From the NCBI GenBank assembly GCA_050256425.1, contig JBBWVW010000086.1, positions 1,015 to 65,014 of the forward strand: 64,000 nucleotides of DNA, written 5' to 3'. The notes beneath the pieces are model-generated. The model saw only the letters and a program-made list of their open reading frames with translations, was not told where the DNA came from and searched no databases. How positions within the stretch are numbered: the first letter of the stretch is position 1; the number at the start of each line of letters is the position of its first letter. Positions 8,710 to 24,496 of the stretch are shown here, one piece after another. This DNA is from Arenicellales bacterium. GTDB taxonomy: Bacteria; Pseudomonadota; Gammaproteobacteria; Arenicellales; UBA868. The position numbers were made by a program, and so were the translations under genes.

Positions 8710-9075
<366 letters not shown>

Positions 9076-9374: not shown

Positions 9375-10187
9375 CTACATTTCCCGTTGCCAGGTATAAC
9401 GTTGCACCATTTTCGCTACGATGGCGTCAAGCGTATACCCGATGATGCCAATGACTACGACCATCGCTGATAAGTGATCGTATGACAATGTTTCCCTGGC
9501 ATCTTTGATCGCGTACCCAAGGCCTGAGCTAACGCCAAGCAGTTCCGCCGGAACCAGAACCACCCATGCGACACCCAGTGCCAGTCGTATTCCCGTAAAT
9601 ATATCGAAAGCAATTGCAGGAAAAATCACCTCTAATAACGTCTGTCTAAAATTTGCCCCAAGGTTTCTGGATACCTTAAACCATGCCGGATCCACTTTCT
9701 TTAATCCAGCAGCAGTCGCGTAAACAACAGGCCAAATGGCTGCGATTGCAATGAGAAAAATAATAGCTTGATCCCACCTGGGAAAAACAAACACCAGGAT
9801 AGGCATCCAGGATAGTGGGCTCACCATTCGTAGCAATTGAAATGGCTCATTACTGATCTGCTCAGTAACTTTGCTCAGACCGATCGCTATTCCTATTGGC
9901 ACACCAATTAAGACGGCTAAGAACAATCCAATCGCCAAACGGTAACCACTCGCCAGAACATTCTCGGTAATGTATCCGGATGAGAGTAGACCCGGCACCG
10001 CCTTCATTGTTGGAACTAAACCAAACTTGATAAAACTACTCGTCTCCGGGGTAATTGCCAGAAACCAGCTACCGATCGCCCAAAGGACGAGGAGGATTCC
10101 GACTCCTGTGGCCGGGTAAAGAACTCGGTCCCTCAACCAAACCAGACTTGTGTTCCGATCGATACCTTTAATATTTTCGCTAGCCAT
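9375..10187 (-). CDS. ABC transporter permease (NrtB/CynB/SsuC-like)
   Basis: LRMVSPLSWMP, EAA-like loop (SRNLGA) and LVPAELLGVSSGLGY. Confidence 0.9.
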   Translation of the reverse strand: MASENIKGIDRNTSLVWLRDRVLYPATGVGILLVLWAIGSWFLAITPETSSFIKFGLVPTMKAVPGLLSSGYITENVLASGYRLAIGLFLAVLIGVPIGIAIGLSKVTEQISNEPFQLLRMVSPLSWMPILVFVFPRWDQAIIFLIAIAAIWPVVYATAAGLKKVDPAWFKVSRNLGANFRQTLLEVIFPAIAFDIFTGIRLALGVAWVVLVPAELLGVSSGLGYAIKDARETLSYDHLSAMVVVIGIIGYTLDAIVAKMVQRYTWQREM

Positions 10188-10204
10188 GTCTTCAATACGT
10201 TAAG

Positions 10205-11023
10205 TTAACCACGATGCCAACTAAAACGCTTAATCAGTGCCATGCATACGCCGTCCATCAAGAATCCTAATATTCCGATTACCAGGATCATTACTGCCAG
10301 ATTGTCATACATCAAGTTTTCACGTGAGTCCTGGATCGTGTAGCCAAGACCTGAGGTTATACCAAGAAATTCTGCAGGCACAATGACAATCCACGCTACT
10401 CCGACGGCCAGCCGAATACCGGTTAAAACGTCAAATGCGATTGCTGGCAGAATGATCTCCTTCACGACATCCCACCAACGGGCACCGAGGTTTCGGGCAA
10501 CCTTGAACCACGAAGGGTCCAGCTTGGCAAGCCCAGCCGCAGTCGCGAAAGCGACGGGCCAAACCGCTGCCATCGAGATCAAGAAAATAATTGCCTGATC
10601 CCAGGTCGGCATAGCAATTACGGCTATCGGCTCCCAAGACAAGGGGCTTACCATTCTAAGAAATTGGAAGGGTGTATTACTTAACTTACGAAAAACTTTA
10701 CTTCTACCCATCAGAATCCCAATCGGCACTCCTGTGAGTATGGCAAGAAGCAAGCCCATTCCAAGGCGATAACCGCTCGCGAGACTTGCGTTTACTATGG
10801 TTCCGTCTTCGACTAAGTATGAGACCGCATTAAGAGCTGGGCCAGGCCCAAAATCGGCAAAACTGCTCGTTGAAGGGCTGCTCTCAAGTAACCAGCCACC
10901 ATACCACCAGAGACCAAACAAAATTGACAGCCCCATGAGGCTGTAAAACACTCGTGTTACCAGGGTTCTGAAGATTGCTCCCAGACGAGAGAAAGGTTGA
11001 TCGTTATTGGTCACTGTCGACAT
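10205..11023 (-). CDS. ABC transporter permease (NrtB/CynB/SsuC-like), second paralogue
   Basis: LRMVSPLSWEP, ARNLGA and IVPAEFLGITSGLGY. Confidence 0.9.
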   Translation of the reverse strand: MSTVTNNDQPFSRLGAIFRTLVTRVFYSLMGLSILFGLWWYGGWLLESSPSTSSFADFGPGPALNAVSYLVEDGTIVNASLASGYRLGMGLLLAILTGVPIGILMGRSKVFRKLSNTPFQFLRMVSPLSWEPIAVIAMPTWDQAIIFLISMAAVWPVAFATAAGLAKLDPSWFKVARNLGARWWDVVKEIILPAIAFDVLTGIRLAVGVAWIVIVPAEFLGITSGLGYTIQDSRENLMYDNLAVMILVIGILGFLMDGVCMALIKRFSWHRG

Positions 11024-11118
11024 AGCTAATGAAGAGTCTATTTTGTGGATTCTCAGCCAGTCTTCTTGATACGAATCGACGGGCCAAAGTACTCTATTCG
11101 ACTTTGATCGATCGCCGA

Positions 11119-11907
11119 CTATGGTGCTTCATCAGTGCCCCGTTCTTCGATACTTGAAGCCGCCCGGAATGTCTCCATTAAATGTTCGCGAAGTTTTTGA
11201 ACTTCGGAATCCTTAGCGTTACGCTCTTCTGGTAATGAAACGACGATCTCGTCCCTGATTTTCCCTGGTGAACCGGCCATGATCACGGCGCGGTCGGCCA
11301 TCAACACCGCTTCATCAATATTGTGAGTGACTATAACTAGATTTATTCCCAGGCTTTTTGCAATAGAGCGAACATCTTTTTGCAAAGCGGCCCGCGTGAA
11401 CGCGTCCAGAGCTGAAAATGGTTCATCAAGAAGCAGCATTTCGGGCTCCATAACCAAGGACCTTGCGAGCGCCACTCTTTGTTGCTGGCCGCCCGATAAA
11501 TCCTGAACGTTTGAGTCCGCAAAGTCTTCAAGATCTACGAGTTTTATGGTTTTCTCCACACGTTCTTGAATTTTTGATTCTGGCCAGTGAGCGAACTTCA
11601 AGCCGATGCCCACGTTCTGGCGAACATGCATCCACGGAAACAAATGGGGCGCTTGGAACATCATCACCCACCGCGGAGATGGATCCTTCACCGGGACATC
11701 ATCGATTCGGATTTCACCAGCAGTGGGGGCCAACAACCCTGCCATAATATGAAGTAAGGTCGACTTGCCACAACCAGATCGCCCAATAATTGCCAGTACC
11801 TCTCCAGGCAACGATTCTAGATTGACCTGGTCAAAGGTTATCGGGCCACGCGATGCATAGCTATGACTTAGTTCTTTTACGGCGATATGCACGCCCTGCT
11901 TACTCAT
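11119..11907 (-). CDS. ABC transporter ATP-binding protein (NrtD/TauB-like)
   Basis: GRSGCGKST, LSGGQQQR, LLLDEPF and VTH. Start is ATG 11907 or 11952. Confidence 0.93.
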   Translation of the reverse strand: MSKQGVHIAVKELSHSYASRGPITFDQVNLESLPGEVLAIIGRSGCGKSTLLHIMAGLLAPTAGEIRIDDVPVKDPSPRWVMMFQAPHLFPWMHVRQNVGIGLKFAHWPESKIQERVEKTIKLVDLEDFADSNVQDLSGGQQQRVALARSLVMEPEMLLLDEPFSALDAFTRAALQKDVRSIAKSLGINLVIVTHNIDEAVLMADRAVIMAGSPGKIRDEIVVSLPEERNAKDSEVQKLREHLMETFRAASSIEERGTDEAP

Positions 11908-12111
11908 TTCGCCCCTCCTCCTTACGATCTTTATATTTCTTGCGGCTTCCATAATAGGCCAAGCCGAAACTAATCTAACAACATCGACTAAATGCCATTA
12001 CAACATAATGGTTACTTGAATTAACCTTGAGGTTAGTAATAAGGTAATGCCTTTATACTTTAAGTATCCCATAAGTTATCCAAACAGTTAAACTGCAAAC
12101 ATACTTTCTCT

Positions 12112-12149
12112 AAGACGATCTAGTTATCTCCTAAATAGGAAATTCCTAT
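12112..12149 (-). promoter_or_regulatory. LysR-type operator copy 1, facing the ABC ATPase/permease operon
   Basis: Minus strand ATAGG-aattt-CCTAT-ttagga-GATAA-ctag-ATCGTCTT; contains a T-N11-A dyad. Confidence 0.75.
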
Positions 12150-12252
12150 TGGTGCTATTGGTTCTTCTTAAGAACAAGGGTAAACGTAAGAAATGCTAAC
12201 TCAAGATTTTACGATGGCAAACGGCCAATGAACTAGCCCTTGGGCAAAAACC

Positions 12253-13209
12253 ATGCCACGCAACACAATATTTCCTCGCTCCCTAAGGTACCTTTTAGCA
12301 GTCGCCAAGCACTCCAGTTTTACGCGCGCCGCAGAATCCTTGTTCGTTTCTCAGCCCGCTCTTTCCCAACAGATAAAACAACTTGAAGCGCAGATCGGCA
12401 TTCAATTGCTGGAACGTTCCGGACGGAATGTACACCTAACAGATGCCGGAGAAATTTATGTACACCACGTCAAGCGAGCGCTCGCAGAAATAAATGCTGC
12501 TGCGCAGGCCTTAGATGACCTAAGCGACCTAACGCGAGGCTCGCTGAACCTGGGGTTAACGCCAATAACCGACTACCTAACGGCGCCTCTAATCCGAGAC
12601 TTTATCACCAAATACCCGAGAATCTCTTTAAACACTATCGAGATGACACAGCAACAGATTGAAGAAGCGGTGCTGCAGGATCAGGTAAATCTTGGAGTCA
12701 TCTTCAGTGATTCATTTTCTCTTTCTACAAGATCGGCGGATCTAGAGATCTACACACTCTTAACTGACTCCCTCGTGTTGGCGGCCGCGAGTTCCACCCA
12801 TCTAACCACTAATGCTAATGAATGCCTCTATTTGGAAGAAGTTGGCTTAGTGAAGCACCCATTAGCGTTATTGAACTCACAGTTTGAGATGCGAAAGCAA
12901 ATTGATGCGTACTTTTCTTACCATGAGATTACGCCGAACGTCACACTAGAATCCAACTCACTCGGTGTAATTATCGAAGTCGTTCGCTCCGGAGAATTAC
13001 ATACAATATTACCCGCATCAATCGTCAAGTCACTAGGCGGTCTTACTCCACTCACGGTGAGCCCGCCGCTGCCGCAACACACTGTCACTATCATTATCAG
13101 AAAGTCTGCCTATCAAAGTCAGGCTTGTAGCGCTTTCCTTAAGCTTGCGCTGCTTTGGAGTCAGGTCCCTAGAGGCGTGCTCGCAGCAGCAAACAAGGCC
13201 CATGGATAA
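12253..13209 (+). CDS. cynR: CynR-like LysR-family transcriptional regulator
   Basis: HSSFTRAAESLFVSQPALSQQIKQLE and DLSDLTRGSL resemble E. coli CynR; cyanase is nearby. Confidence 0.8.
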   Translation: MPRNTIFPRSLRYLLAVAKHSSFTRAAESLFVSQPALSQQIKQLEAQIGIQLLERSGRNVHLTDAGEIYVHHVKRALAEINAAAQALDDLSDLTRGSLNLGLTPITDYLTAPLIRDFITKYPRISLNTIEMTQQQIEEAVLQDQVNLGVIFSDSFSLSTRSADLEIYTLLTDSLVLAAASSTHLTTNANECLYLEEVGLVKHPLALLNSQFEMRKQIDAYFSYHEITPNVTLESNSLGVIIEVVRSGELHTILPASIVKSLGGLTPLTVSPPLPQHTVTIIIRKSAYQSQACSAFLKLALLWSQVPRGVLAAANKAHG

Positions 13210-13355
13210 CCTAGACAACAACCTAAGTGAACCTTCTTTGGAGAGTTATCAATCATCGCACTTCATTCTTTTGAAAGCGCAAAGCCATTGTAATTAGCTG
13301 GTCTCTTGCTTGGCCGCAGCCTGTTTTTCAGTGATTTCTTTATCCGTCTTTCAAG

Positions 13356-14642
13356 TTAATCTACTTCCTTGCTGATTTGCCGATCAAACAACGACGGTCC
13401 ATAGAGCTCATTGGTGATAAGCGTGCAAATGGTCACAGCAATTATTGAGAAAATCGCCGCCTCGTAAGACAGGGTAAATTCAAGAACAATTAGAACCGTT
13501 GAAATCGGGGCCCCGAAAACAGCGGCAGCGACTGCAGCCATTCCTGCGATACTCAGACTTTCGCCTCCGGCAATTCCCAGAGCGGCTACCATTTTCCCAA
13601 ACAAACACCCTACCCCTGCGCCGATAAAAAGCGATGGCAAGTACACGCCGCCGTGCATCCCGCAGCCGATACATGTCACAGTAAGGAGCAGTTTAGATAT
13701 AACCAAAATTACTATTGTGGTCACCGCAAGATTGTTATGAAGAAGATCTGGAATTACATCAAGGCCAAGACCAAGCGCCCCGGGAACCCAAATTCCAATT
13801 ACTCCGCAGACCATTGCCGCAAAAATTAATGGCCCGATCCGCCCTTTCCAGGAATGATCAACCTTTTCGGTTACCTTCCCGAGCATAATCATGAAAACAA
13901 CTGCTGTAATCGCAAAAATAGGAGCGCCAAGGATAACAAACGGAAGTAACTCCAGCATCGAGCCTCCGACAACCTGATCGAATTGAATCCGACGTTCACC
14001 CAACATTTGTTCACTTAGGGCACTAGCCGTAATAGCCGCTATCGAAATCGGAGCAACTGCTCGTAGTGAGAATCGACGTAACACAACCTCATGGGAGAAA
14101 ACGATTGCCGCCATCGGCGTACCAAAGCCTGCGGCAATGGCGCCAGCAACACCGCATCCAATCCACGTCGAAGTAGAAATCGTGCTCCGAAGCACTCTAG
14201 AAACACCAGACCCGATAGCTCCACCGAAATGAACCAAGGGCCCATACTGTCCGACTGAAGCTGCCCCTCCAACCGAAATCAGCGCCGCCAGTGTAGAGCC
14301 AAAGCCAATTCGGATATCAACAACTTCACCAGATTGTGCAGCTTGAATCGTTTCTGCTGGGCCGTGAAACCGTTCGACTCTAAGGATGCGACGCAATCCA
14401 TATATGAGAAACGCCGCGGCCAGAAGAAATACCGGGCTGACAATTACTACCCATCCGTCCCCGTAACTTGAGGCGATGCGTCCAATAAAATCCGAGAAAT
14501 GTTTTATAGACTCTGCGATAAAAAGAAAGCCGCTCGCCGCGATGGCCATTATGGCTCCAATTCCCACTCCAACACCAACTCTTAAAAAAGAGTCTCTAAT
14601 AGGGCGATGACCCAGTTCTTTCACTGTTAAGTTTGTTTCCAT
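13356..14642 (-). CDS. CLC-family anion channel/transporter, atypical, no CBS domains
   Basis: GQYGPLVHFGG, GVAGAIAAGFGTPMAA, GGVYLPSLFIGA and AAVFGAPIS. Start trimmed to ATG 14642. Confidence 0.88.
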   Translation of the reverse strand: METNLTVKELGHRPIRDSFLRVGVGVGIGAIMAIAASGFLFIAESIKHFSDFIGRIASSYGDGWVVIVSPVFLLAAAFLIYGLRRILRVERFHGPAETIQAAQSGEVVDIRIGFGSTLAALISVGGAASVGQYGPLVHFGGAIGSGVSRVLRSTISTSTWIGCGVAGAIAAGFGTPMAAIVFSHEVVLRRFSLRAVAPISIAAITASALSEQMLGERRIQFDQVVGGSMLELLPFVILGAPIFAITAVVFMIMLGKVTEKVDHSWKGRIGPLIFAAMVCGVIGIWVPGALGLGLDVIPDLLHNNLAVTTIVILVISKLLLTVTCIGCGMHGGVYLPSLFIGAGVGCLFGKMVAALGIAGGESLSIAGMAAVAAAVFGAPISTVLIVLEFTLSYEAAIFSIIAVTICTLITNELYGPSLFDRQISKEVD

Positions 14643-14754
14643 ACTACCGGTCTGCAATCGTTGCCTTTGTGCACTATGAGACCAGCCCAGGTCAACGCCC
14701 AATCGTGCTATGGCTTCTCGAACCTTTTAAATGTTTCGTCTGGCGACGTGGCCC

Positions 14755-15195
14755 TCACCACGAACGGTACGGGAGAAACTTTCCACTCAAATCAAGGCGT
14801 ACTCGATCTCCATTTTCATTTTCTTCTCTAGATAAAGTCATTCTGAAATCGATCGCAGACATTATCCCATCCCCGAATTCCTCATGTATCAGCTCTTTAA
14901 TTGTCTCCCCATATACCCCTACCATTTCATAAAGCCTGTATATCACCGGATCCGTCGGTACGGTCTGTTCCCATTTTTTGTTTGGAAACTGCTGCAACGC
15001 AATTGATGCGTCCGCTGATAGCTCGAGATAGTTCACGACAGCATCCGCGTCCTCTTTATCCATATGGTTCATGCCAAGACAAGCCGAAACGACAAACTCA
15101 GGAGACATCGAGGTCTGCTCTGCTATCTGCCTCCATGAAACCGATTTCTTCGTTTTCGCTGTCTTGATCTCCTCTGACATCTTTACCTTATCCAT
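14755..15195 (-). CDS. cynS: Cyanate hydratase (cyanase)
   Basis: PTDPVIYRLYE, IHEEFGDGIMSAIDF and GKFLPY. ATG 15195 has a GGGAG SD. Confidence 0.96.
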   Translation of the reverse strand: MDKVKMSEEIKTAKTKKSVSWRQIAEQTSMSPEFVVSACLGMNHMDKEDADAVVNYLELSADASIALQQFPNKKWEQTVPTDPVIYRLYEMVGVYGETIKELIHEEFGDGIMSAIDFRMTLSREENENGDRVRLDLSGKFLPYRSW

Positions 15196-15298
15196 TTTCA
15201 AGCTCCCTAACCAAATTGTTTGTTGATGTATTGATGAACAACCTTATAGACCCAGGTACAACATTGTGATCTGATCGCGCCCACGCACTATGTGATAT

Positions 15299-16303
15299 CT
15301 AGTTCTGGCCAGAACGCTGAAGTAGTCTGGCGTCATTTGCCATCCCATAGATTTCAATGTTCCAACCTAACTCGACATCCAGTTGCTTTCGAGCAAGTCC
15401 GCGAAGTCGCTCGCCGAACCTCTCTATTTCAGATACGTCTAATTTCTTTTTCCCGATCAGAATATTCGGATAACGAGAATCCAGCCGTAGGCTTGAATCG
15501 GCGTCCTGCAAATCCCCAAGTTCAGCAATAATAGCTTTTGCTTTTGGGAGTTCTAGCTGCGACTTGGCATTATCGAATTCTTTTTGAATCACATAAAACG
15601 CATGTCCTGTGCGAAAACGCTCTGTTGAGTATGTTTTCTGATGTAGTGCTTTCATTCGAGAAAGCTTCTCCTCGAGTAAGGCAACGCGTCTTCGCTCTGG
15701 CTTAAGGACGGCCTGGACGATCACGCCGGTCTTAAGTTTCTCGCACAGCCTTGTGACCGTATCGACGTGGCCACGCTTTATTGTCTCTACCCGCCCATCT
15801 CGCCTCACAATCGTCGCGCGTAAAAAAGAATCGAGGATGCCGTTCTCAGCAAAACACGCGTTGCTGGCGAGGGCTCCACCAATGGTTCCGGGAATTGCCC
15901 CCAGAAAGGTAAGGTCAAAACCGTTTTCCAGCGCTTTTAGCACAATGTCTTTGGTGAATGCTCCTGCGCCCACTCGTATGGCGTTATTGGGCAGCACCTC
16001 AAAACCATTAAAGCGGGCCCCTAGGGACACTACTAGGCCCGCGAACCCCTCCTTTCTGAAAATCACATTCGAGCCTGACCCAGATGGAAGCACGGCAATT
16101 GATTCGGGCAGATCACGCATCAGAACACATAGGTCTGCCATATTCAAAGGTTGAATCAGTGCTACGGCCTTCCCACCAGAGTTAAACCACGTTTGTAGCG
16201 CAAAGTGAGCATCAAACTCAATATCACCTTGGATGTTGCCCAAGTAAGGCTTCGCGTCATTAGCCGTTAACGGCGACCCATCCTTACTGATAATGCTGCG
16301 CAA
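15299..16303 (-). CDS. MurB-fold FAD-binding protein with substituted catalytic residues
   Basis: FAD motifs GSGSNV and GAIPGTIGGAL are retained. SxGSVF is replaced by RTGHAF, HANF by YPNI, and LxxE by LGWN. Confidence 0.7.
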   Translation of the reverse strand: MRSIISKDGSPLTANDAKPYLGNIQGDIEFDAHFALQTWFNSGGKAVALIQPLNMADLCVLMRDLPESIAVLPSGSGSNVIFRKEGFAGLVVSLGARFNGFEVLPNNAIRVGAGAFTKDIVLKALENGFDLTFLGAIPGTIGGALASNACFAENGILDSFLRATIVRRDGRVETIKRGHVDTVTRLCEKLKTGVIVQAVLKPERRRVALLEEKLSRMKALHQKTYSTERFRTGHAFYVIQKEFDNAKSQLELPKAKAIIAELGDLQDADSSLRLDSRYPNILIGKKKLDVSEIERFGERLRGLARKQLDVELGWNIEIYGMANDARLLQRSGQN

Positions 16304-16474
16304 AATAGTGCTACCTCGGCGAATACTATCTTTCGTTAGTTTCTCATCCGCTTTATCTTCGACGCCATCTTAGATTGTCTGACACACCAGGGTGGCCCCG
16401 CTTGAAAAAGTGTATCTACAGCCATTCTCATTGTAAAACTCTGGGATTCTCAGTGATCAGCTCGCCTAGGCCAG

Positions 16475-16512
16475 ATAGGTTTTTCCTATTCTCTGGATAA
16501 AATAATCGTCTT
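16475..16512 (+). promoter_or_regulatory. LysR-type operator copy 2, facing DUF1348
   Basis: ATAGG-ttttt-CCTAT-tctctg-GATAA-aata-ATCGTCTT running into TTGAAT (-35-like). Confidence 0.78.
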
Positions 16513-16628
16513 GAATTTGACCACATCGCTGTCATGATGTTTCGTAGACTTGAAAGGCTCGATCTTCAAAATAGTCAAATTCACTATAGTTCGTCGAACT
16601 GAAATAACCAGAGGTTTTGGGAGGATTA

Positions 16629-17099
16629 ATGCAACCAACTGATCTTAAACCCCCGTTTAACTCGTCTACTGCAGCCAAAAAAGTACAGATGGCTGAGAAC
16701 GCATGGAATACTCGCGATCCAGAACGTGTGAGCCTGGCCTATACACCAGATAGCACATGGCGGAATCGCTCAGAACATTTCCAGGGACGAGACGCCATCG
16801 TGAAATTTCTTACCAAGAAATGGGAGAAAGAACTTGATTATCGTTTAGTCAAAGAACTCTGGGCATTTTCAGAGAACCGCATAGCCGTACGATTCCAGTA
16901 TGAATGGCGCGATCAAGAACAACATTGGCACAGATCATATGGAAACGAGCTGTGGGAATTTTCCGAAGAGGGCTTAATGCGGCGGCGGGAAGCAAGCATC
17001 AATGATGTTGCTATTGATGTTAGCCAACGTCGATTTTTCTGGCCCAGCCCAGGCCATCGACCCTCTGACCATGCTGGCCTGCTTCAGAGCCCAGAGTAA
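16629..17099 (+). CDS. DUF1348 / SnoaL-like (NTF2-fold) protein
   Basis: [36 protein letters not shown] and [10 protein letters not shown]; GGAGGA SD. Confidence 0.9.
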
Positions 17100-17228
17100 T
17101 TTAATGAGCTTATTAACCAGTGGTGGAATACTGGCGCCCGGTCCCCCTATTCTACAAATCGAGCCGCGGTGTGCTGCCACCCCAGGCAAGAAACTGCGCG
17201 GTGAACTACTGCCTTCGTGATCGTATTC

Positions 17229-17645
17229 TCAGGAAGTCTTTTGGGTGTGAGCGTTAAATTTTTTGAGAAACCCGGCTAACGAATAAATAGCTTGCTGGAC
17301 TTCGGAATCACGCAACAATCGAATCAATCCCAGATACCCACCATGACTCATGTTTTTTTCATCATTAGCGCCATCAAGGAGTTTCTCAGAGGTAAGCGCT
17401 TTTGCGACGCCCTCTAAATTCTCTTGCACTGCAGGGTCGCCTAGCGCCTGCAAGAGATGCATCAGCCCTTCGTTTCTCGTCACACGATCCATCAGGATCA
17501 TTCCTTCCCCAATCGTTGCTGCCAAACGTGTAACGATATCGTCAGTCATTGCATCCTGCGCGGCTGCAATGGCTGATGCTAACTCAATTAATTTATCAAG
17601 ATTTTGGGTTTCCAGATTGGCGCCCGCTTCTTTCAATTCGTTCAT
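17229..17645 (-). CDS. DUF1641-domain protein
   Basis: GYLGLIRLLRDSEVQQAI terminus; the family typically follows SQR-like genes. Confidence 0.75.
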   Translation of the reverse strand: MNELKEAGANLETQNLDKLIELASAIAAAQDAMTDDIVTRLAATIGEGMILMDRVTRNEGLMHLLQALGDPAVQENLEGVAKALTSEKLLDGANDEKNMSHGGYLGLIRLLRDSEVQQAIYSLAGFLKKFNAHTQKTS

Positions 17646-17695
17646 CGTATTTTTTCCATAGACATTGCAGTTGATGTTCTGGAAACTACTTTCGA

Positions 17696-18829
17696 TCAGA
17701 GAAGACCTCGCGCCGAGGACCAATACCATTGGTTATAGGACATCTTCAGCATGTGCATCGACTTGGTTGGCGGCCTGATTTCCGGTGGATCAATATAATT
17801 GAAGCATGCATTAGTTGCGCGGTCCTGGTCTGCTTCGATAAAGCAATACACCTTGCCGTCGTACTCTCGTGTTGCCGTCCCGGTTCGACAAAGAGATGCG
17901 ATGTTCTCACCGATTACTTCACTTTCAAAGTGGGCGGTTGAACCTGTTTTGCTGATTGGCAGGTTAGTGGTATCACCAAGCACGAAGACGTTATCCTGGC
18001 CGTCCATCCTTAGCGAATAACGGTCAGTCGGTATCCAGCCCCCCTCGCCAAGGTTATTATCTTCTATCACCTGCATACCTCTGTGAGGAGGGACGGCGAC
18101 TAACAGATCGAATTCTTTTTCTGTCCCCTCTTCGCTATGTACGATTTTGTTTTCGACATCGATCTCTTTCATATTGAAGAAAGTTTCGTAATCGACTTCC
18201 ATCCGCGCAAATTCCGGGATTGCCCATTTCGCGATGTTTTCAATGTTGTGTATCCGCGCAATCGGATAGGTGTACTTGAGATCGACCTTGTCGCGAATGC
18301 CGCGTTTTTTAAAAAATTCATGCAGCATGAAAGTGATCTCGATCGGCGCGATGGGACACTTATGCGGAACACCAACCACCACCACTACCTTGCCCCCTTC
18401 GAAGTCGCGCAGTTTTTTAAACATACTGACAGCGCCGTCTCGGGTATACGGTGTTTCAGACGACTCCTTAAGTCCAGGCACCTCGTCATATACCGCTTCA
18501 CAACCAGTCGCTATCACTAGCATGTCATAGTCATGGACAACCCCGGCTTTGGTACGAACGCGGTTACTGCTCATTTCAAATTCTTCAACAGGATCAACGA
18601 AAAACTTGATGCCCGGCTCCAAAAGACTCGATTGATCACGACAAATATCGTTAAGAGCCATTTTGCCAAACGCAACGTAAAGGAGCCCAGGCTGATACCA
18701 GTGTTGGTCCGAAGCGGACAACATTGTGATCTCCACGCTGCCTTGTCTGATTTCTTTGGAGAGTCGTCGCGCAACATTGTTTGCGGCGATCGTTCCGCCC
18801 ATTCCACCCCCGACGAACAGAATTCTCAT
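17696..18829 (-). CDS. sqr: Sulfide:quinone oxidoreductase-like flavoprotein (type III-like)
   Basis: GGGMGG FAD motif, HKCPIAPIE, VPPHRG, LPISKTGSTAHFE and VYCFIE (two active-site Cys). Confidence 0.8.
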   Translation of the reverse strand: MRILFVGGGMGGTIAANNVARRLSKEIRQGSVEITMLSASDQHWYQPGLLYVAFGKMALNDICRDQSSLLEPGIKFFVDPVEEFEMSSNRVRTKAGVVHDYDMLVIATGCEAVYDEVPGLKESSETPYTRDGAVSMFKKLRDFEGGKVVVVVGVPHKCPIAPIEITFMLHEFFKKRGIRDKVDLKYTYPIARIHNIENIAKWAIPEFARMEVDYETFFNMKEIDVENKIVHSEEGTEKEFDLLVAVPPHRGMQVIEDNNLGEGGWIPTDRYSLRMDGQDNVFVLGDTTNLPISKTGSTAHFESEVIGENIASLCRTGTATREYDGKVYCFIEADQDRATNACFNYIDPPEIRPPTKSMHMLKMSYNQWYWSSARGLL

Positions 18830-18914
18830 TTAGACCTCCTTATGAAATGCCAAACCCACTTTCGAAAAATACTTTTCACCACATACAAACTAACACCAGA
18901 CGGAAAGGGATATT

Positions 18915-19145
18915 TCACTTTATCTTGCGAACCTTTATGTGCCATACGTCATCGATCTTTTCGTTGCTAACAAGCTCGTGACCCACTTTACTGATCCACT
19001 CCGGTACATCGTTTGCAGAACCTTTATCGGTAGACAGCAGTTCTAACTGGTCTCCGACTCCAGCCCGCTTCATGAATGAGATCAGTTCCATCAACGGCCC
19101 TGGACAAAAAGTGTTCCGGGCATCGACTATTTTTTCTTCGGACAT
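18915..19145 (-). CDS. tusA: TusA-family sulfur carrier
   Basis: VDARNTFCPGPLM (CPxP) and DVPEWI motifs. Confidence 0.9.
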   Translation of the reverse strand: MSEEKIVDARNTFCPGPLMELISFMKRAGVGDQLELLSTDKGSANDVPEWISKVGHELVSNEKIDDVWHIKVRKIK

Positions 19146-19183
19146 AACGCTTCTCCACAAATGACACTTAGTGCCAGTTTCGT

Positions 19184-19576
19184 CTAAAACGAGACTATTC
19201 TTCCGTCTTCTGCATCAGAGAGGAACCGGGTCAATCCAGTAGCAGGTCCAAACTCTAACATCAGATCATCTGGACTAACCTTAAGGAGATCTAGAGCCAT
19301 TGAGCAGGCCAATAATTTAGCATCTCCGAGTTCGGCTGCCTGTTCAAATAATACCCTGAACTCTGGGACGCCCTTGACACCGATTAAATCCCCGAATGGT
19401 CCCTCCTTTGGCGGCACTAAGGTCGCATTCTGCTTAACGAGGAATTGAAGAGCGTTCATCGAAAAAAAGACCGACACTTCGCTTCCACTTGCTGCCGCGA
19501 CAGAAGCGACCATCGCTGCCATTTGCAGTTTTTCGAGTGTTCCAGAAACACAAATTATTGATAGTTTGCTAGTCAT
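19184..19576 (-). CDS. DsrE/DsrF/DrsH-like (DsrE2-type) sulfurtransferase
   Basis: SGTLEK, AAASGSEVSVFFS and KLLACSMALDLL (conserved Cys). Confidence 0.85.
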   Translation of the reverse strand: MTSKLSIICVSGTLEKLQMAAMVASVAAASGSEVSVFFSMNALQFLVKQNATLVPPKEGPFGDLIGVKGVPEFRVLFEQAAELGDAKLLACSMALDLLKVSPDDLMLEFGPATGLTRFLSDAEDGRIVSF

Positions 19577-19732
19577 GCTGATACTTGATTGGTAGTGAAC
19601 CGAACCTGTGTGAAGGAGCTCTAATTCTTGAAGAGCCTCACCTAACGGAGTTTTACGAAACTAGGCTTGTCATCTTCAGAGGCGCAACCCTATGAGTCTA
19701 CGAGACATCCTGACCCCAATGTGGCCAGTTTC

Positions 19733-19770
19733 AAGACGATAATTTTATCTGAAGAATAGGAAAAACCTAT
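19733..19770 (-). promoter_or_regulatory. LysR-type operator copy 3, facing dsrE-tusA-sqr
   Basis: Minus strand ATAGG-ttttt-CCTAT-tcttca-GATAA-aatt-ATCGTCTT running into TTGAAA. Confidence 0.78.
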
Positions 19771-19877
19771 ACTGGCCAAGCAAACTTATAACTAAAGCGT
19801 TAAAAACCTCAACAAGCAGTGTTCCTGAAAATCTACTATTCAGCCAGATCAGATGACCTTTGGGCTTGGTAGAGAAA

Positions 19878-20606
19878 TCAGCTCTCGCTTTGGATATGCC
19901 GCCTCACTGCCCAGCCCGAAAAACCCCCAAGCACCAGCCATAAGATCAGACTGCTAAGGCCAGTGGCTAGCAGAAAATCTTTTGACAACTCGGAGAGTTG
20001 ATCAGCGATGGCTATCGGAAACCCTTCGTAGAGATTCTCCGCGTGCGGTGCACCGTATATATGTGGCGCGCACAGAAGAACAACCAACCCGAGCCACTTC
20101 CATGGGCTACTCAGTATGTAGGCCAGGTACATACCTGCCCCACTACAGATTACAGTCGCTGTCCACCACCATTGCCTTAGTTCTAACGCAGCACCGGAAA
20201 CCCCCGGGATTTCAGGAGAAATACCAAAAGAAGGAGCGGCAAAAAAGGCAATGAAGCCTCCAAGGCCCCAAATGATCCCGGAAGAGGCGCTGATTTCAGT
20301 ATTTTTCCCAAACTTCAGTGAGGCCGTAGCTATTAAAGCGACCAGGACAAGTGCAAATCCAACAGCAGTTAATACGTTCGATAAAATCGTAAACAGAGTT
20401 CGCTCGATTCCATCACTGGGTTCCCAGTCCTCATCATGCTGGCCATCAGCGACTTGCGCTGTGTCTCCGGCGCCGACTTTCAGGCTTTCAAATTTCTCAG
20501 CCTGAACAATGATCGGAATCACTTGCCAGCGCTGGGCCAGACTGAGGGCAATGCCCCCAATCAGCCCAGCGATAAGCGCTATAACGATCAGCCGGCGAAA
20601 CAGCAT
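19878..20606 (-). CDS. cbtA: Cobalt transporter subunit CbtA
   Basis: VIPIIVQAEKFE, WEPSDGIERT, APSFGISPEIPG, RQWWW and PHIYGAP. Start trimmed to ATG 20606. Confidence 0.88.
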   Translation of the reverse strand: MLFRRLIVIALIAGLIGGIALSLAQRWQVIPIIVQAEKFESLKVGAGDTAQVADGQHDEDWEPSDGIERTLFTILSNVLTAVGFALVLVALIATASLKFGKNTEISASSGIIWGLGGFIAFFAAPSFGISPEIPGVSGAALELRQWWWTATVICSGAGMYLAYILSSPWKWLGLVVLLCAPHIYGAPHAENLYEGFPIAIADQLSELSKDFLLATGLSSLILWLVLGGFSGWAVRRHIQSES

Positions 20607-20619
20607 AACCGCCGCGGCC

Positions 20620-20814
20620 TTAGTGGCAGGGGAAGCCTTGAGAATGGCGCATATCGTGCCCCGCATTGTGGACTGATGATGTCTGAACAAAAGCGGCGGC
20701 AAACAACACTGTGGCACCAAGGGCAAACGCGCAAACAAGCTGCAAGCCCTTGCTGGCAAGCATTGGCGCTACCTGTGGAACTTCAACAACGTTTTGGTTG
20801 ACATGATTTTGCAT
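20620..20814 (-). CDS. cbtB: Cobalt transporter subunit CbtB
   Basis: Single TM helix followed by HNAGHDMRHSQGFPCH. Confidence 0.9.
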   Translation of the reverse strand: MQNHVNQNVVEVPQVAPMLASKGLQLVCAFALGATVLFAAAFVQTSSVHNAGHDMRHSQGFPCH

Positions 20815-20888
20815 AACTAAATCTCCTGGATTAAATTTTTTGACCACTAATCTTTAACCACTTTAGATGGTATTTTCGTATCGTCCGT

Positions 20889-22292
20889 TTAGATGATAAA
20901 CACCTCTTCGCGTTCGAACGGATTATCACCCTTTGGCACACTTGGATCGTTTCTCCATTCCGGATTAGCCATTAAAGAATTCCTTATATAGTCGTACTGC
21001 ACCAAGTCATTGACGACGAACTCTGGATCTAAAGTATCCAAGAACGTTCTATCGCCAGTGACTACCGTTTCGTTTTTCAACTCGTTTACTACCAAGCGTG
21101 TCGCAGAGGGGTAAGGCCATGCTTGGAAATCAATCCGATTTTGACCCCATTCTGTATGACGGATAGCTGCAGGATTATTGTAGTACGCCGGGTCGTAGAA
21201 CAACATAGCGCGCTCGACCACCTTGCTGGGGAAGGGATAGTACTTCTTGCCCTCACGCGACAACATCTGGGCCATTTCCTTGCGGTTAGATCCGGTGTAC
21301 AACTGGGCTTTAACAATCGCGTTATGCACTCCTTGAGCCCACGCAGCATGTTCTGGATCCATACAATCATCTTCATGCATGACTACGACACAGCATGGGT
21401 GTCCTTTCCAGACGTCGCCAGTGAATCGAAGCACTTTGCCGCCTGCCTTGATTTCACCTAAGGCATTAAAGGGTTCCGCAACGCAATACCCATCTATTTT
21501 TTTGGCCGCCAAAGCTGGTGGCATATCGGGCGGTGCTAAGACCTGGTAATTACATTCGTTTGCCGCCAAAGCTGCATCTTGTGGTCGAATGACCGATGTA
21601 ATACCTGCCGCTTTCATGATTTTTTGAGAGACGATATTATGAATTGAGTACCAATATGGTACAGCGAATTGCTTACCGCCAAAATCTGCCGGCGTCTTAA
21701 TATCTGCGTTTACAACGATCGCCGATCCGTTACTGTGATCCCAGGCGGTGACCTTCACCGGATACTGATTGTTATACCTCATCCAAATTGGTATCGGGAT
21801 AAGCATATGGGTCAGATTAAATCGGTGTGCAGAGAAAGCCTCTACCAGTGGAGACCAACCTCTAATGAGGGTTGGACGCTTGGAGTCAATACCTTCTTCT
21901 TTGAAGAAGCCCAGTTCATGTGCGACCAGAAGTGCTGCTGCGTCCGTGATCGGTATGTAGCAAATATTGATAACTGGATCGAATTTTTTCTTACCGAATG
22001 CGGGAAGCCCTGTAAGCCCAGTACCAGCAAGTGCTGCGCCGGCCTGAAGGACCGAGCGGCGGCTGATTCCCGTTCCCATAAATCCGCCAAACAGTGGATC
22101 AGAATTTGTCTTTAGGTATGGATCATCAATTCCATCACCAAATTTCTTGGCATCGAGGGGCAGACCCTTTTCATCAATGGGACCACCATCGACAAACTGC
22201 GCTTCCTCTGGGTCTAATAACTCTTTCTTAATAGCCGTAGACTGCGCTTTTGCTGCTAGAAACTTCACCTCTTCCTGTGTTAGCTTAGACAT
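20889..22292 (-). CDS. ABC transporter substrate-binding protein (NrtA/CmpA/CynA-like)
   Basis: YIPITDAAALLVAHELGFF, AVPYWYSIHN, GYCVAEPFNA and HPCCVVV; internal TAT motif SRRSVLQ. Confidence 0.9.
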   Translation of the reverse strand: MSKLTQEEVKFLAAKAQSTAIKKELLDPEEAQFVDGGPIDEKGLPLDAKKFGDGIDDPYLKTNSDPLFGGFMGTGISRRSVLQAGAALAGTGLTGLPAFGKKKFDPVINICYIPITDAAALLVAHELGFFKEEGIDSKRPTLIRGWSPLVEAFSAHRFNLTHMLIPIPIWMRYNNQYPVKVTAWDHSNGSAIVVNADIKTPADFGGKQFAVPYWYSIHNIVSQKIMKAAGITSVIRPQDAALAANECNYQVLAPPDMPPALAAKKIDGYCVAEPFNALGEIKAGGKVLRFTGDVWKGHPCCVVVMHEDDCMDPEHAAWAQGVHNAIVKAQLYTGSNRKEMAQMLSREGKKYYPFPSKVVERAMLFYDPAYYNNPAAIRHTEWGQNRIDFQAWPYPSATRLVVNELKNETVVTGDRTFLDTLDPEFVVNDLVQYDYIRNSLMANPEWRNDPSVPKGDNPFEREEVFII

Positions 22293-22479: not shown

Positions 22480-22815
22480 TCAAACTGCGTTCAGTCGCGT
22501 TTCAATAACCTTCATTTGTTGCGCAAGATCTTCTTCCGTAATAACTCCCCGTAGAATCATGCTGTGAGCAAGTGCAAGAAGTTGACGCTCTGGATGTGGA
22601 ATGTGCTTATAGTGATCCTCTACCAGATCATCCTCTTCACCCCGTCGTTCTAGAACAGGCAGGGCACACGCCCCCTCGTTGAGAACTTCACAGGTACTTT
22701 CGAGTGTTATCCTCCAGGGAGGATCTGGATTATCAACGCCATACTCCTCGCATAGGTCGGCCCACACCCGTCCTTCCTTTCCAATCTGTTCCAGCAATGG
22801 AATTGGTTTAGACAT
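22480..22815 (-). CDS. Thiocyanate hydrolase activator/accessory protein (P15K-like)
   Basis: Directly after scnC. NHase-beta-like C-terminus HPERQLLALAHSMILRGVITEEDLAQQM. Confidence 0.7.
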   Translation of the reverse strand: MSKPIPLLEQIGKEGRVWADLCEEYGVDNPDPPWRITLESTCEVLNEGACALPVLERRGEEDDLVEDHYKHIPHPERQLLALAHSMILRGVITEEDLAQQMKVIETRLNAV

Positions 22816-22824
22816 TTTTCAGAC

Positions 22825-23535
22825 CTAATGACCGTAAGGATGTACTGCGCGGTGAATCGGCCGCGTGTCGTCCGCCTTTCGATCTGCGCGTGGCATTGCG
22901 ACACCGATCAAGCAATCCCGTGTCACGATCTCCGCTAGTTGATCTTCGCTCCACCCTTCAGTGCCTTCAGGGCGGGTTGGCATCACCACGTATCTGGTCT
23001 TCTGGTTGGAATCAGCGACCCTTATTTCGACATCCTCGGGCAACTGCAGGCCGAACTCTGCTAGGACTTGGCGCGGCCACCTGACCAGTCGGCGACGATA
23101 ATTAGGGGTTCTGTACCACTCAGGGGACTGACCCAGTATAGGTCTTGGGTAGCAAGAACAAAGCGTGCACACCACTACATGCTTAAGCGTTGGTGTATCC
23201 ACCAGAATCCGGGGGTTGCAATAGTCGCTCGGTGTCCCAAACTTGGTTGGCATCGTGTTAATCCAGTCAATGCCTACATCAAGACTCGCCTTTACAGGAT
23301 CGTCTATACATAGTTGCTTGTAATCTTCATCTAGCCACGCCTTTGCGACCAATCGACCCGCGGGAAGCGGCCCAAGGGTATGCATATACTCTGTCCACTG
23401 GTTATGGTCATCTTGAGTGAATAGCCCTTTTTCAATACAGAGTTCACGGACCGCTACCTCAAGTACTTCAAAGTCGCTGACCTCATCCACCATAGGCGCA
23501 GGTGGACGGTGATCGTGATCATGTGAGTTTGACAT
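22825..23535 (-). CDS. scnC: Thiocyanate hydrolase gamma subunit (cobalt-binding)
   Basis: VVCTLCSCYPRPILGQSPEWYR. Thr marks Co-type, and Arg after YP is SCNase-like (NHases have Trp). Closely resembles Thiobacillus thioparus ScnC as I recall it. Confidence 0.95.
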   Translation of the reverse strand: MSNSHDHDHRPPAPMVDEVSDFEVLEVAVRELCIEKGLFTQDDHNQWTEYMHTLGPLPAGRLVAKAWLDEDYKQLCIDDPVKASLDVGIDWINTMPTKFGTPSDYCNPRILVDTPTLKHVVVCTLCSCYPRPILGQSPEWYRTPNYRRRLVRWPRQVLAEFGLQLPEDVEIRVADSNQKTRYVVMPTRPEGTEGWSEDQLAEIVTRDCLIGVAMPRADRKADDTRPIHRAVHPYGH

Positions 23536-23612
23536 TATGTTTTCCTCTTTACGTCAGACGAGTTCTTTTTCGTTTTTTACTTTGTGATCGATAGTAAAAT
23601 TATCTAGGCCGA

Positions 23613-23966
23613 TCAAATAGCCTCTAACCATCTTTCAGATAGTTCGGTCTCGAGCGTATCCCCTGCAAATTTGGGGGGATAATCTGGCCATAGGTCAGTT
23701 TGATTGAACACTACACTGTAGAACCACTCTGGAGTGTCTGTGTTATCCCAAGCCTCGTCCTCGGCAGCAGGACTTTCGTAAACCAACTTGACGACTATTG
23801 CCTCTGCTTCGCGAAGGTACATCTGCGAACGGGAATAGAAGATATCTGGCAAGTTGCGGATGCGCACTTTATCGCCCACGTTAAACTTCGGCTTTCCTGC
23901 CTCTCCCTTGAAGCACTGAGGATCCCCAATGCCAGTTGCTTTCTCAGCGTGATGATTATTACTCAT
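23613..23966 (-). CDS. scnA: Thiocyanate hydrolase alpha subunit
   Basis: ATGIGDPQCFKG, KFNVGDKVRI, LVYESPAAEDEA and DTLETE. Confidence 0.93.
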   Translation of the reverse strand: MSNNHHAEKATGIGDPQCFKGEAGKPKFNVGDKVRIRNLPDIFYSRSQMYLREAEAIVVKLVYESPAAEDEAWDNTDTPEWFYSVVFNQTDLWPDYPPKFAGDTLETELSERWLEAI

Positions 23967-24393
23967 AAATCTCCCCTCGCTTCTTAACCTCGTCGATCTT
24001 ATTAACCAATTCGGTCAGGGTAATATGCTGCTTGTCGACCAGCACTAGCGCCGCTGTCATCAACCACCTGCCGTAATACGGTAGCCCGAGGTATTGGGTC
24101 TGCCCGACGTCCACGTTTTGCCGCCGCCTACGCTCTTCAGCGTTCCAAACGCCACGCCATGCTAATACCTCACAGGTGACAAAAGTATTGTGTTCCCAAA
24201 TCTCCTCTTCTTTTTCTTCCCACGTTATAGGAATGTCGGCCTCACCTCCAACATCATGGGAGGAGCGTGTGTAAGCGCGGTAATGCGCGTTATCAATTAG
24301 GTCGGGATAAGGGGCGTGCTGCGGCTGATGAAGCGCAGGCTGAAGCTGCGCAACAATATTTAGATGCCGCATGATATTTTCGCGAGTTGACAT
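23959..24393 (-). CDS. scnB: Thiocyanate hydrolase beta subunit
   Basis: QPALHQ, HDVGGEAD, EKEEEIWE, LAWRGVWNAEERRRRQN and YLGLPYYGRW. Start trimmed to ATG 24393; overlaps scnA by 8 nt. Confidence 0.93.
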   Translation of the reverse strand: MSTRENIMRHLNIVAQLQPALHQPQHAPYPDLIDNAHYRAYTRSSHDVGGEADIPITWEEKEEEIWEHNTFVTCEVLAWRGVWNAEERRRRQNVDVGQTQYLGLPYYGRWLMTAALVLVDKQHITLTELVNKIDEVKKRGEIYE

Positions 24394-24458
24394 ATCTGTT
24401 TTGCGTCTCCGAATTGGAATTCTCAGCTTAAAACTACTCCTTGATCGTCCTTTGTGCC

Positions 24459-24496
24459 AAGACATTCTGGTTATTGACTGTATAAGAAAAGTCTAT
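24459..24496 (-). promoter_or_regulatory. LysR-type operator copy 4 (diverged), facing scnB
   Basis: Minus strand ATAGA-ctttt-CTTAT-acagtc-AATAA-ccag-AATGTCTT with identical spacing, running into TTGGCA; TAGTTT lies 18 nt further on. Confidence 0.65.

Follow-up and report, generated by a model that had tools for sequence, protein, structure and literature searches.

The 64-kb window analysed here, a stretch of the genome (2.67 Mb, 91% complete) of an Arenicellales bacterium, carries four genes of an ATP-binding cassette (ABC) transporter that are divided between two sites. The available data indicate, with a probability of about 0.65, that these genes encode a single NitT/TauT-class importer of four parts, which has thiocyanate (SCN-) as its physiological substrate and probably accepts cyanate (OCN-) too. 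One of the parts, a periplasmic substrate-binding protein (SBP), is encoded next to the genes of thiocyanate hydrolase, and all of them lie in a low-GC island extending from approximately 9.1 to 26.4 kb of the window (guanine-cytosine content 47.9%, compared to 55.1% in the genome and about 59% in the flanks). Thiocyanate hydrolase is a cytoplasmic enzyme and, to our knowledge, no bacterial thiocyanate importer has been characterised, the thiocyanate bioremediation literature assuming that the neighbouring ABC transporter does the import.

The translocator genes are all on the reverse strand and specify a second membrane subunit of 270 aa (perm2, 9375-10187; BPD_transp_1, E 1e-20), a first membrane subunit of 272 aa (perm1, 10205-11023; BPD_transp_1, E 1e-22) and an ATPase of 277 aa without fused regulatory domain (11119-11952; ABC_tran, E 1e-36). 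Position 11907 is an alternative ATPase start, corresponding to an internal ATG (Met16 of the longest open reading frame, ORF), and either start is possible. No binding-protein gene stands beside this unit, its flanks being an RRM-protein gene below and a divergent LysR gene above. The SBP (467 aa, 20889-22292, reverse strand; NMT1_2, E 1e-32) completes the usual makeup of the class, that is, two BPD_transp_1 permeases, one ABC_tran ATPase and one NMT1_2 SBP. Its gene follows those of the thiocyanate hydrolase, scnB-scnA-scnC (22825-24465, reverse strand), the predicted cytoplasmic consumer of SCN-. In this group scnC (22825-23535, reverse strand) scores 370 bits against TIGR03887 (cut-off 291), while the matches of scnA and scnB are to nitrile hydratase beta, in its C-terminal and N-terminal half, respectively. 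Between scnC and the SBP gene, and 187 nt from the latter, is an ORF for a small P15K-like protein of 111 aa (22480-22815, reverse strand), which had zero matches in Pfam and NCBIfam scans and is named by position only, a position that it keeps in 40 of 42 related loci. An earlier note on this DNA, made from the sequence alone, had described the ATPase and two distinct permeases lacking an adjacent binding protein, and a NrtA/CynA-like SBP 9 kb away behind scnC and the P15K-like gene. Both descriptions hold, with the additions that the ATPase extends to 11952 on its longest ORF and that the SBP is the only matching one of the genome.

The association of the SBP with thiocyanate hydrolase is the main argument for the proposed substrate. 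A locus scan using one genome per species yielded 43 SBP loci with identities of 55-89%, the next matches being at 27% or lower; the most distant of them (L040) falls outside the 42 related loci that constitute clade A. This clade has 100% support in the SBP tree and its members are exclusively scn-linked: scnC adjoins the SBP gene in 40 of the 42 loci, the remaining two being short contigs, and the window shows the same adjacency, with the SBP gene beside scnBAC and the P15K-like gene. At the genome level, a true scnC was found in 17 and the SBP in 17 of the 243 genomes of the order, both occurring together in 16 (Fisher p = 7e-23). The exceptions are both fragmented assemblies, one of which combines a stop codon in the SBP with a truncated scnC on a single contig. 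The transporter thus forms a distinct clade exclusive to scn genes with near-perfect scnC co-occurrence, and synteny and co-occurrence together bear out the earlier proposal that the importer belongs to the thiocyanate hydrolase cluster. The island itself is carried by only about 10 of the 28 genomes of the genus. In one genome of this genus (G232:C142:2154-4676) a truncated match to scnC shares its contig with an SBP gene that is interrupted by a TAA stop, and the island may be decaying there. A second nitrile hydratase alpha homologue in the genome of the window (G000, contig C47:11213-11761), which shares 40% identity with scnC and scores below the thiocyanate hydrolase cut-off, probably represents a nitrile hydratase of the ordinary kind. 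A contig labelled "uncultured Mycobacterium sp." (L009, CAXMUG010000073.1) was also seen to carry a scn-ABC cluster typical of Gammaproteobacteria, and this contig is probably mis-binned.

The SBP bears a twin-arginine signal near residues 75-100. The family motif S/N-R-R-x-[VL]-L-[QK], with a hydrophobic stretch after it, is conserved in 20 of 21 aligned members (the L040 fragment starts after the motif), and some database relatives match PF10518 (TAT_signal). The protein is predicted to be exported to the periplasm by the twin-arginine translocation (Tat) pathway. Export signals were also looked for in the N-termini of ScnA, ScnB and ScnC, where none was seen; with the SBP carrying a Tat signal and the hydrolase subunits devoid of one, thiocyanate must cross the inner membrane. 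The twin-arginine motif is preceded by a long N-terminal stretch (residues 1-76, 22065-22292), which is unusual for a Tat signal and whose last 30 or so residues are kept family-wide (DGI..DDP.L....DPLF...LGTG..RR). This stretch is translated, since relatives carry Leu at the position of the window's Met72.

The fold of the SBP is NrtA/CmpA-like, and its profile matches the regulatory domains of CmpC and NrtC, as well as NrtA, with E values between 1e-15 and 1e-18. To these proteins, and to CmpA, the SBP is related distantly. In comparison with the cyanobacterial NrtABCD and CmpABCD systems (NrtA, 2g29; CmpA, 2i48; CmpC regulatory domain, 9uai), which have SBPs of the same fold family, the profile reaches E 8e-15 with NrtA and 7e-18 with the CmpC regulatory domain, the match to CmpA being weak (E 3e-7) and confined to a short stretch. 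Nitrate is held in the CmpC regulatory domain by Trp319, His408, Gly452 and Lys481 (PMC13287603). These ligands were mapped on the SBP by profile alignment to that domain, the numbering being checked against the residues named in the same paper. In the alignment the Trp and His positions are kept (W146 and H218), A272 replaces the glycine, and the specificity lysine (NrtA Lys269, equivalent to CmpC Lys481, and Glu in CmpA) becomes an invariant Cys301. With Cys301 in place of Lys or Glu, and the other residues as mapped, the SBP should bind neither nitrate nor bicarbonate.

Several observations weigh against thiocyanate as the substrate and in favour of cyanate. The genome of the most distant locus, L040 (Methyloprofundus), lacks scnC, and a metagenome scan with its SBP retrieved 80 loci of a sister clade (clade B), whose SBPs are 55-62% identical to that of the window and split cleanly from clade A in the SBP tree. 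Clade B corresponds to ATPase-SBP-permease operons from which scn genes are absent in 78 of the 80 loci. In 18 loci cynS adjoins the operon, and a further 12 have it at another place in the locus. Clades A and B do not differ at the four predicted ligand positions or at the residues neighbouring these, and on two metagenome contigs (L125 and L148) a clade-B SBP, ATPase and permease were recruited independently into scnBAC-P15K clusters. Convergence of these two on clade A was considered and rejected: at the 15 other positions that are fixed differently in the two clades (C270/I, C247/V, S222/L and V304/C, for example) they carry the clade-A residue at none, the clade-B consensus at 11 and a third residue at four. 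Their presence in scn clusters without clade-A residues means that the pocket may not distinguish OCN- from SCN-, and suggests that thiocyanate hydrolase can be supplied by transporters of either type. Moreover, the regulator encoded in the island is a CynR orthologue and cynS is present there. A Cys-Cys motif, at first a candidate thiocyanate signature, was rejected as not diagnostic because clade B shares it, as does the distant SBP 3un6, whose ligand is unknown. An AlphaFold2 model of the SBP, computed from an alignment of 21 sequences, is poor (mean predicted local distance difference test score, pLDDT, of 54.5); the pocket positions were taken from the sequence alignment only and the model served neither for fold search nor for pocket geometry. 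Given the clade-B residues, the CynR-type regulator and the cynS of the island, sequence cannot separate SCN- from OCN-, and the hedge "SCN- (or OCN-)" of the earlier note was apt. At L040:5164-6798, the clade-B operon is followed by a gene whose product, a sigma-54 activator containing a GAF domain, recalls the CynF of the Pseudomonas cynFABDS cluster.

One could consequently view the four genes as one importer that takes up cyanate, as the characterised CynABD systems do (PMC6627978), with thiocyanate entering via a CLC protein or an unrecognised carrier. The proximity to scn would then reflect the joint occurrence of cyanate and thiocyanate, or a CynR regulon inherited whole. Besides the sister clade linked to cynS, the shared first-shell residues and the CynR orthologue, this explanation draws on the presence of cynS in 30 of the 42 scn-linked loci. 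We nevertheless consider it unlikely. A clade-A SBP was never seen without scn, short contigs apart, and the SBP and the true scnC are found together in 16 of the 17 genomes that contain each of them. In most lineages the SBP gene lies inside the scnBAC-P15K operon, whereas cynS is separately transcribed or absent, being missing from four loci with long flanks (L017, L026, L029 and L038) in a set where scn genes are never missing. Some of the positions fixed differently between the clades (C270/I, S222/L and V304/C) are within 2-4 residues of predicted ligand positions. Finally, the hydrolase is a cytoplasmic enzyme, alongside which no other candidate importer is conserved. The CLC anion channel or exchanger of the island (13356-14702, reverse strand; Voltage_CLC, E 4e-59) has counterparts in just 5 of the 42 loci, all of split layout, and was judged an unlikely importer, also because a channel would be expected to release, not admit, anions against the inside-negative potential; it is possibly a second anion route, outside the ABC system.

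It is far less probable that the importer carries some other small anion (nitrate, nitrite, bicarbonate or sulfonate) and that its scn neighbourhood is incidental. The names of the best NCBIfam matches could be read in this way, these being ntrB, SaoP and TauC for the permeases and SsuA_fam for the SBP, as could the NrtA/CmpA-like fold of the latter, but all scores are far below the curated cut-offs. The permeases reach 136 (perm2) and 118 bits against ntrB (TIGR01183; cut-off 209), and the SBP 64.9 bits against SsuA_fam (cut-off 163.5); at E <= 1e-5 the only other NCBIfam matches of the SBP were SaoX and, weakly, taurine-SBP models, all below cut-off, and the protein remains under the TIGR01728 and TIGR01729 thresholds that define SsuA/TauA sulfonate binders. 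As described above, the nitrate-specifying lysine is a Cys, which sets the SBP apart from NrtA and the nitrate transporters, and the bicarbonate-specifying Glu of CmpA is absent as well. Differences to NrtABCD extend to the ATPase, which has no NrtC/CmpC regulatory domain and no companion ATPase bearing one, and to the SBP signal, after which no lipoprotein cysteine was seen, unlike in NrtA and CmpA. The strict co-occurrence with scnC, at the p value given above, is also not what an incidental association would produce.

That the four genes form one ABC uptake system is very probable, a reading that rests on synteny, co-evolution, shared regulation and the lack of rival partners. Directly after scnBAC-P15K, 32 clade-A loci have the genes of the ATPase, SBP and permease grouped together; in these contiguous loci the ATPases are 60-68% identical to that of the window and the orthologues of perm1, directly after the SBP gene, 59-68% identical. 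In the window the transporter genes do not all fall within the scn operon, the ATPase and permease genes being 9 kb from the SBP gene, and this split order is repeated in six loci (L002, L003, L004, L036, L038 and L039), with the ATPase and permeases 7-9 kb downstream. Across 95 loci, SBP identity to the window correlates with the ATPase and permease identities (r = 0.95 and 0.93, respectively), and the SBP and ATPase trees mirror each other. The window ATPase falls within a clade of 39 scn-linked ATPases with 100% support, apart from clade B and from the other NitT/TauT ATPases of the genome. Pairing of the SBP with permeases elsewhere in the genome was looked for. Two further NitT/TauT systems, on contigs C153 (SBP-permease-ATPase-permease-ATPase) and C189 (SBP-glyoxalase-permease-ATPase), were rejected as rival partners because each is self-contained with its own SBP; their permeases are at most 30% identical to those of the window. 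A NMT1-like protein on contig C53 was also rejected, its gene sitting in a type II secretion cluster.

The two transporter units are further connected by a 38-bp operator motif, AAGACGAT-N4-TTAT-N8-ATAGGAAA-NN-CCTAT, with a LysR-type core ATAGG-N5-CCTAT. One copy (12112-12149), including a LysR-type T-N11-A box, occupies the spacer between the ATPase gene and the divergent gene of the CynR-type LysR regulator (12253-13209, forward strand; HTH_1 and LysR_substrate), where the ATAGG-N5-CCTAT box lies about 100 nt before the LysR start and also precedes the ATPase unit. Another copy (24459-24496), before scnB, heads the unit scnBAC-P15K-SBP-cbtA, and the remaining two precede dsrE (19733-19770) and, inverted, the DUF1348 gene (16475-16512). 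A whole-genome pattern scan showed that these four copies are the only ones in the 2.67 Mb and that all are within the island, extending the claim of the earlier note that both transporter units share an operator. The regulator scores 318.9 bits against the CynR equivalog NF008416 (cut-off 277) and has orthologues in 35 of the 42 related loci; as in CynR regulons, it is divergent from a target operon with a T-N11-A box, to which its binding is predicted. The operator is kept at the same four promoters in split-layout relatives, including the ATPase/cynR spacer of L002, L003, L004, L036 and L039 and a site about 100 nt before scnB, and in contiguous-layout relatives it is kept in the LysR-scnB spacer. 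As no convincing terminator was found between the P15K-like gene, the SBP gene and cbtA, the latter directly 3' of the SBP gene within one unit, the SBP is probably transcribed with scnBAC. With a CynR-type operator on both units, the parts of the transporter should be made together.

The earlier suggestion of one uptake system with a heterodimeric permease thus gains support from synteny, trees, operator and the exclusion of rival partners. To regard the SBP and the ATPase-permease unit as unrelated orphans, the SBP serving other permeases or acting as a sensor and the translocator using another SBP, seems highly improbable, since the 9 kb and eight unrelated genes between them, and the 91% completeness that could leave a partner in the missing part of the genome, are outweighed by the joined orthologues of 32 relatives, the mirrored trees, the self-containment of all other NitT/TauT systems, the island-confined operator on both units and the split order kept in six other genomes.

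The two permeases are distinct paralogues, 58% identical. In the tree, perm2 and the perm2 genes of split-layout relatives form a well-supported clade of their own, and perm1 groups with the perm1 genes of the same relatives in a separate, well-supported clade. The two permeases of Thiobacillus stem from a separate duplication and the sponge-symbiont lineage has a single permease, from which it follows that the predicted heterodimeric permease is a lineage-specific feature and not a family-wide one.

In the model that we favour, the SBP would be exported via Tat to the periplasm, where it would capture a small linear pseudohalide anion and dock on a perm1/perm2 heterodimer, transport being powered by a homodimer of the single ATPase. 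Thiocyanate, as the physiological substrate, would be passed to the cytoplasmic cobalt enzyme thiocyanate hydrolase (ScnBAC), and cyanate, probably accepted also, would be degraded by the cyanase of the island. Both transporter units, along with two other island units, would be under the operator of the CynR-type LysR encoded beside the ATPase gene, and a rearrangement in this lineage would have split an ancestral scnBAC-P15K-ATPase-SBP-permease operon. Gene content, orthology, co-occurrence, the shared operator and the export signal were observed here; the physical assembly, the substrate, the affinity, the signal sensed by the regulator and the direction of the rearrangement are inferred. 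High affinity, for instance, would be expected by analogy with the transporter class. That thiocyanate is a substrate is quite likely, whereas exclusive specificity for it is doubtful. The system is thus likely a pseudohalide importer with thiocyanate supply as its main role here and cyanate as second substrate, and the latter would explain why a cyanase travels with an enzyme that makes no cyanate. More tentatively, clade A could be a dedicated high-affinity thiocyanate SBP family that arose from a cyanate-binding CynA-like ancestor by second-shell changes; these changes (C247, C270, S222, V304, G297 and others) might then surround an unchanged Trp/His/Ala/Cys pocket.

The scn operon of Thiobacillus was reportedly first described by Kantor et al. 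in 2015. Berben et al. noted in 2017 that scnABC of Thiobacillus thioparus and Thioalkalivibrio thiocyanodenitrificans precedes a hypothetical gene and the genes of four NitT/TauT ABC subunits (PMC5328954), and Huddy et al. in 2021 spoke of "the necessary transporters" (PMC8061750), so that the novelty implied by the earlier note was overstated. The system of the window is a rearranged member of this transporter group already noticed beside scn genes. What is new is its split layout, along with the sister clade and the mapped residues. The literature searched contained no biochemical or genetic test of a scn-linked transporter, its papers on thiocyanate transport or uptake being mammalian only, and public databases name the SBP simply as a generic ABC or NitT/TauT binding protein. 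The putative transporter of T. thioparus DSM 505 and T. thiocyanodenitrificans was described from its gene context (PMC5328954). The Thiobacillus SBPs (L034, L035 and L041) belong to the same clade, being 65-68% identical to that of the window; their genes come after scnBAC and a small hypothetical (P15K-like) gene, DsrE and SQR genes follow, there are two permease genes, and cynS and a LysR gene are nearby. The main difference is that their four transporter genes are together (ATPase-SBP-permease-permease), whereas in the window the SBP gene stays with scnBAC and the others are 9 kb off beside the regulator; the separate origin of the two Thiobacillus permeases, mentioned above, is another. 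CynABD of Synechococcus elongatus and of Pseudomonas pseudoalcaligenes (cynFABDS, PMC6627978) was compared by description. Like the system of the window, it has a single SBP, a permease and a single ATPase from the nitrate/cyanate/bicarbonate class. Further points in common are a linear pseudohalide as substrate, predicted for the window, and a linkage to cyanase, in the window's case through the sister clade beside cynS and the CynF-like activator after the L040 operon. CynABD differs in that the window clade is tied to thiocyanate hydrolase and not to cyanase alone, and in that the window has a CynR-type LysR regulator instead of CynF and two permease paralogues.

The value of these findings lies in a sharpened, testable hypothesis on specificity, in which a nitrate-specifying residue is absent and a cyanase-linked sister clade has the same first-shell residues. 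If clade A proved to be a dedicated SCN- family, it would provide the first defined thiocyanate ABC importer, one with a wide distribution across Thiobacillus, the symbionts of sponges and lucinids, and Gammaproteobacteria of the open ocean, and nitrogen, sulfur and energy would regularly be scavenged from SCN- in the sea. In public metagenomes the SBP has at least 3,891 matching protein clusters (E <= 1e-20), so that the answer bears on the extent of thiocyanate use by marine bacteria and animal symbionts. The split layout also illustrates that "orphan" ABC parts can be paired via a shared operator and comparison with relatives.

The island contains other genes, mostly on the reverse strand. 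The cyanase gene cynS (14755-15201, reverse strand) matches Cyanate_lyase and CYNS_N and scores 149 bits against TIGR00673 (cut-off 113). It belongs to another unit than the transporter genes, at distances of 2.8 kb (ATPase gene) and 5.7 kb (SBP gene). Beyond it are genes for a MurB-like flavoprotein (reverse strand), a DUF1348 protein (forward strand) and DUF1641, sulfide:quinone reductase (SQR) and DsrE proteins (all reverse strand). The SQR-like gene (17696-18829, reverse strand) has as best NCBIfam match the "type III SQR, selenoprotein subtype" model, with 308 bits against a cut-off of 525. The cobalt transporter subunit gene cbtA (19878-20759, reverse strand) matches CbtA with E 4e-46 and TIGR02458 with 202 bits (cut-off 183). 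At the left border of the island is the gene of a glycine-rich RRM RNA-binding protein (8710-9075) with a GGC/GGT repeat tract; no tRNA genes were found anywhere in the window, and there was no integrase among the ORFs scanned at 8.7-26.3 kb.

Some minor observations concern the operator copies. In the region 24393-24465, the longest scnB ORF begins within the operator copy that precedes the gene; translation probably starts at Met25 instead (near 24393), in keeping with the distance of about 100 nt between operator and scnB in relatives. The DUF1348-dsrE block is bracketed by 99-nt inverted repeats (16452-16550 and 19695-19793, 78% complementary) that hold two of the operator copies and look like a duplicated promoter region. 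In the contiguous-layout locus L016, a second operator (L016:15052-15089) precedes the gene of a 514-aa AlgE-like outer-membrane barrel (PF13372; L016:13195-14739, reverse strand). The arrangement is similar in about 20 contiguous-layout loci and absent from the genome of the window, and the barrel could be a co-regulated anion porin of the same pathway.

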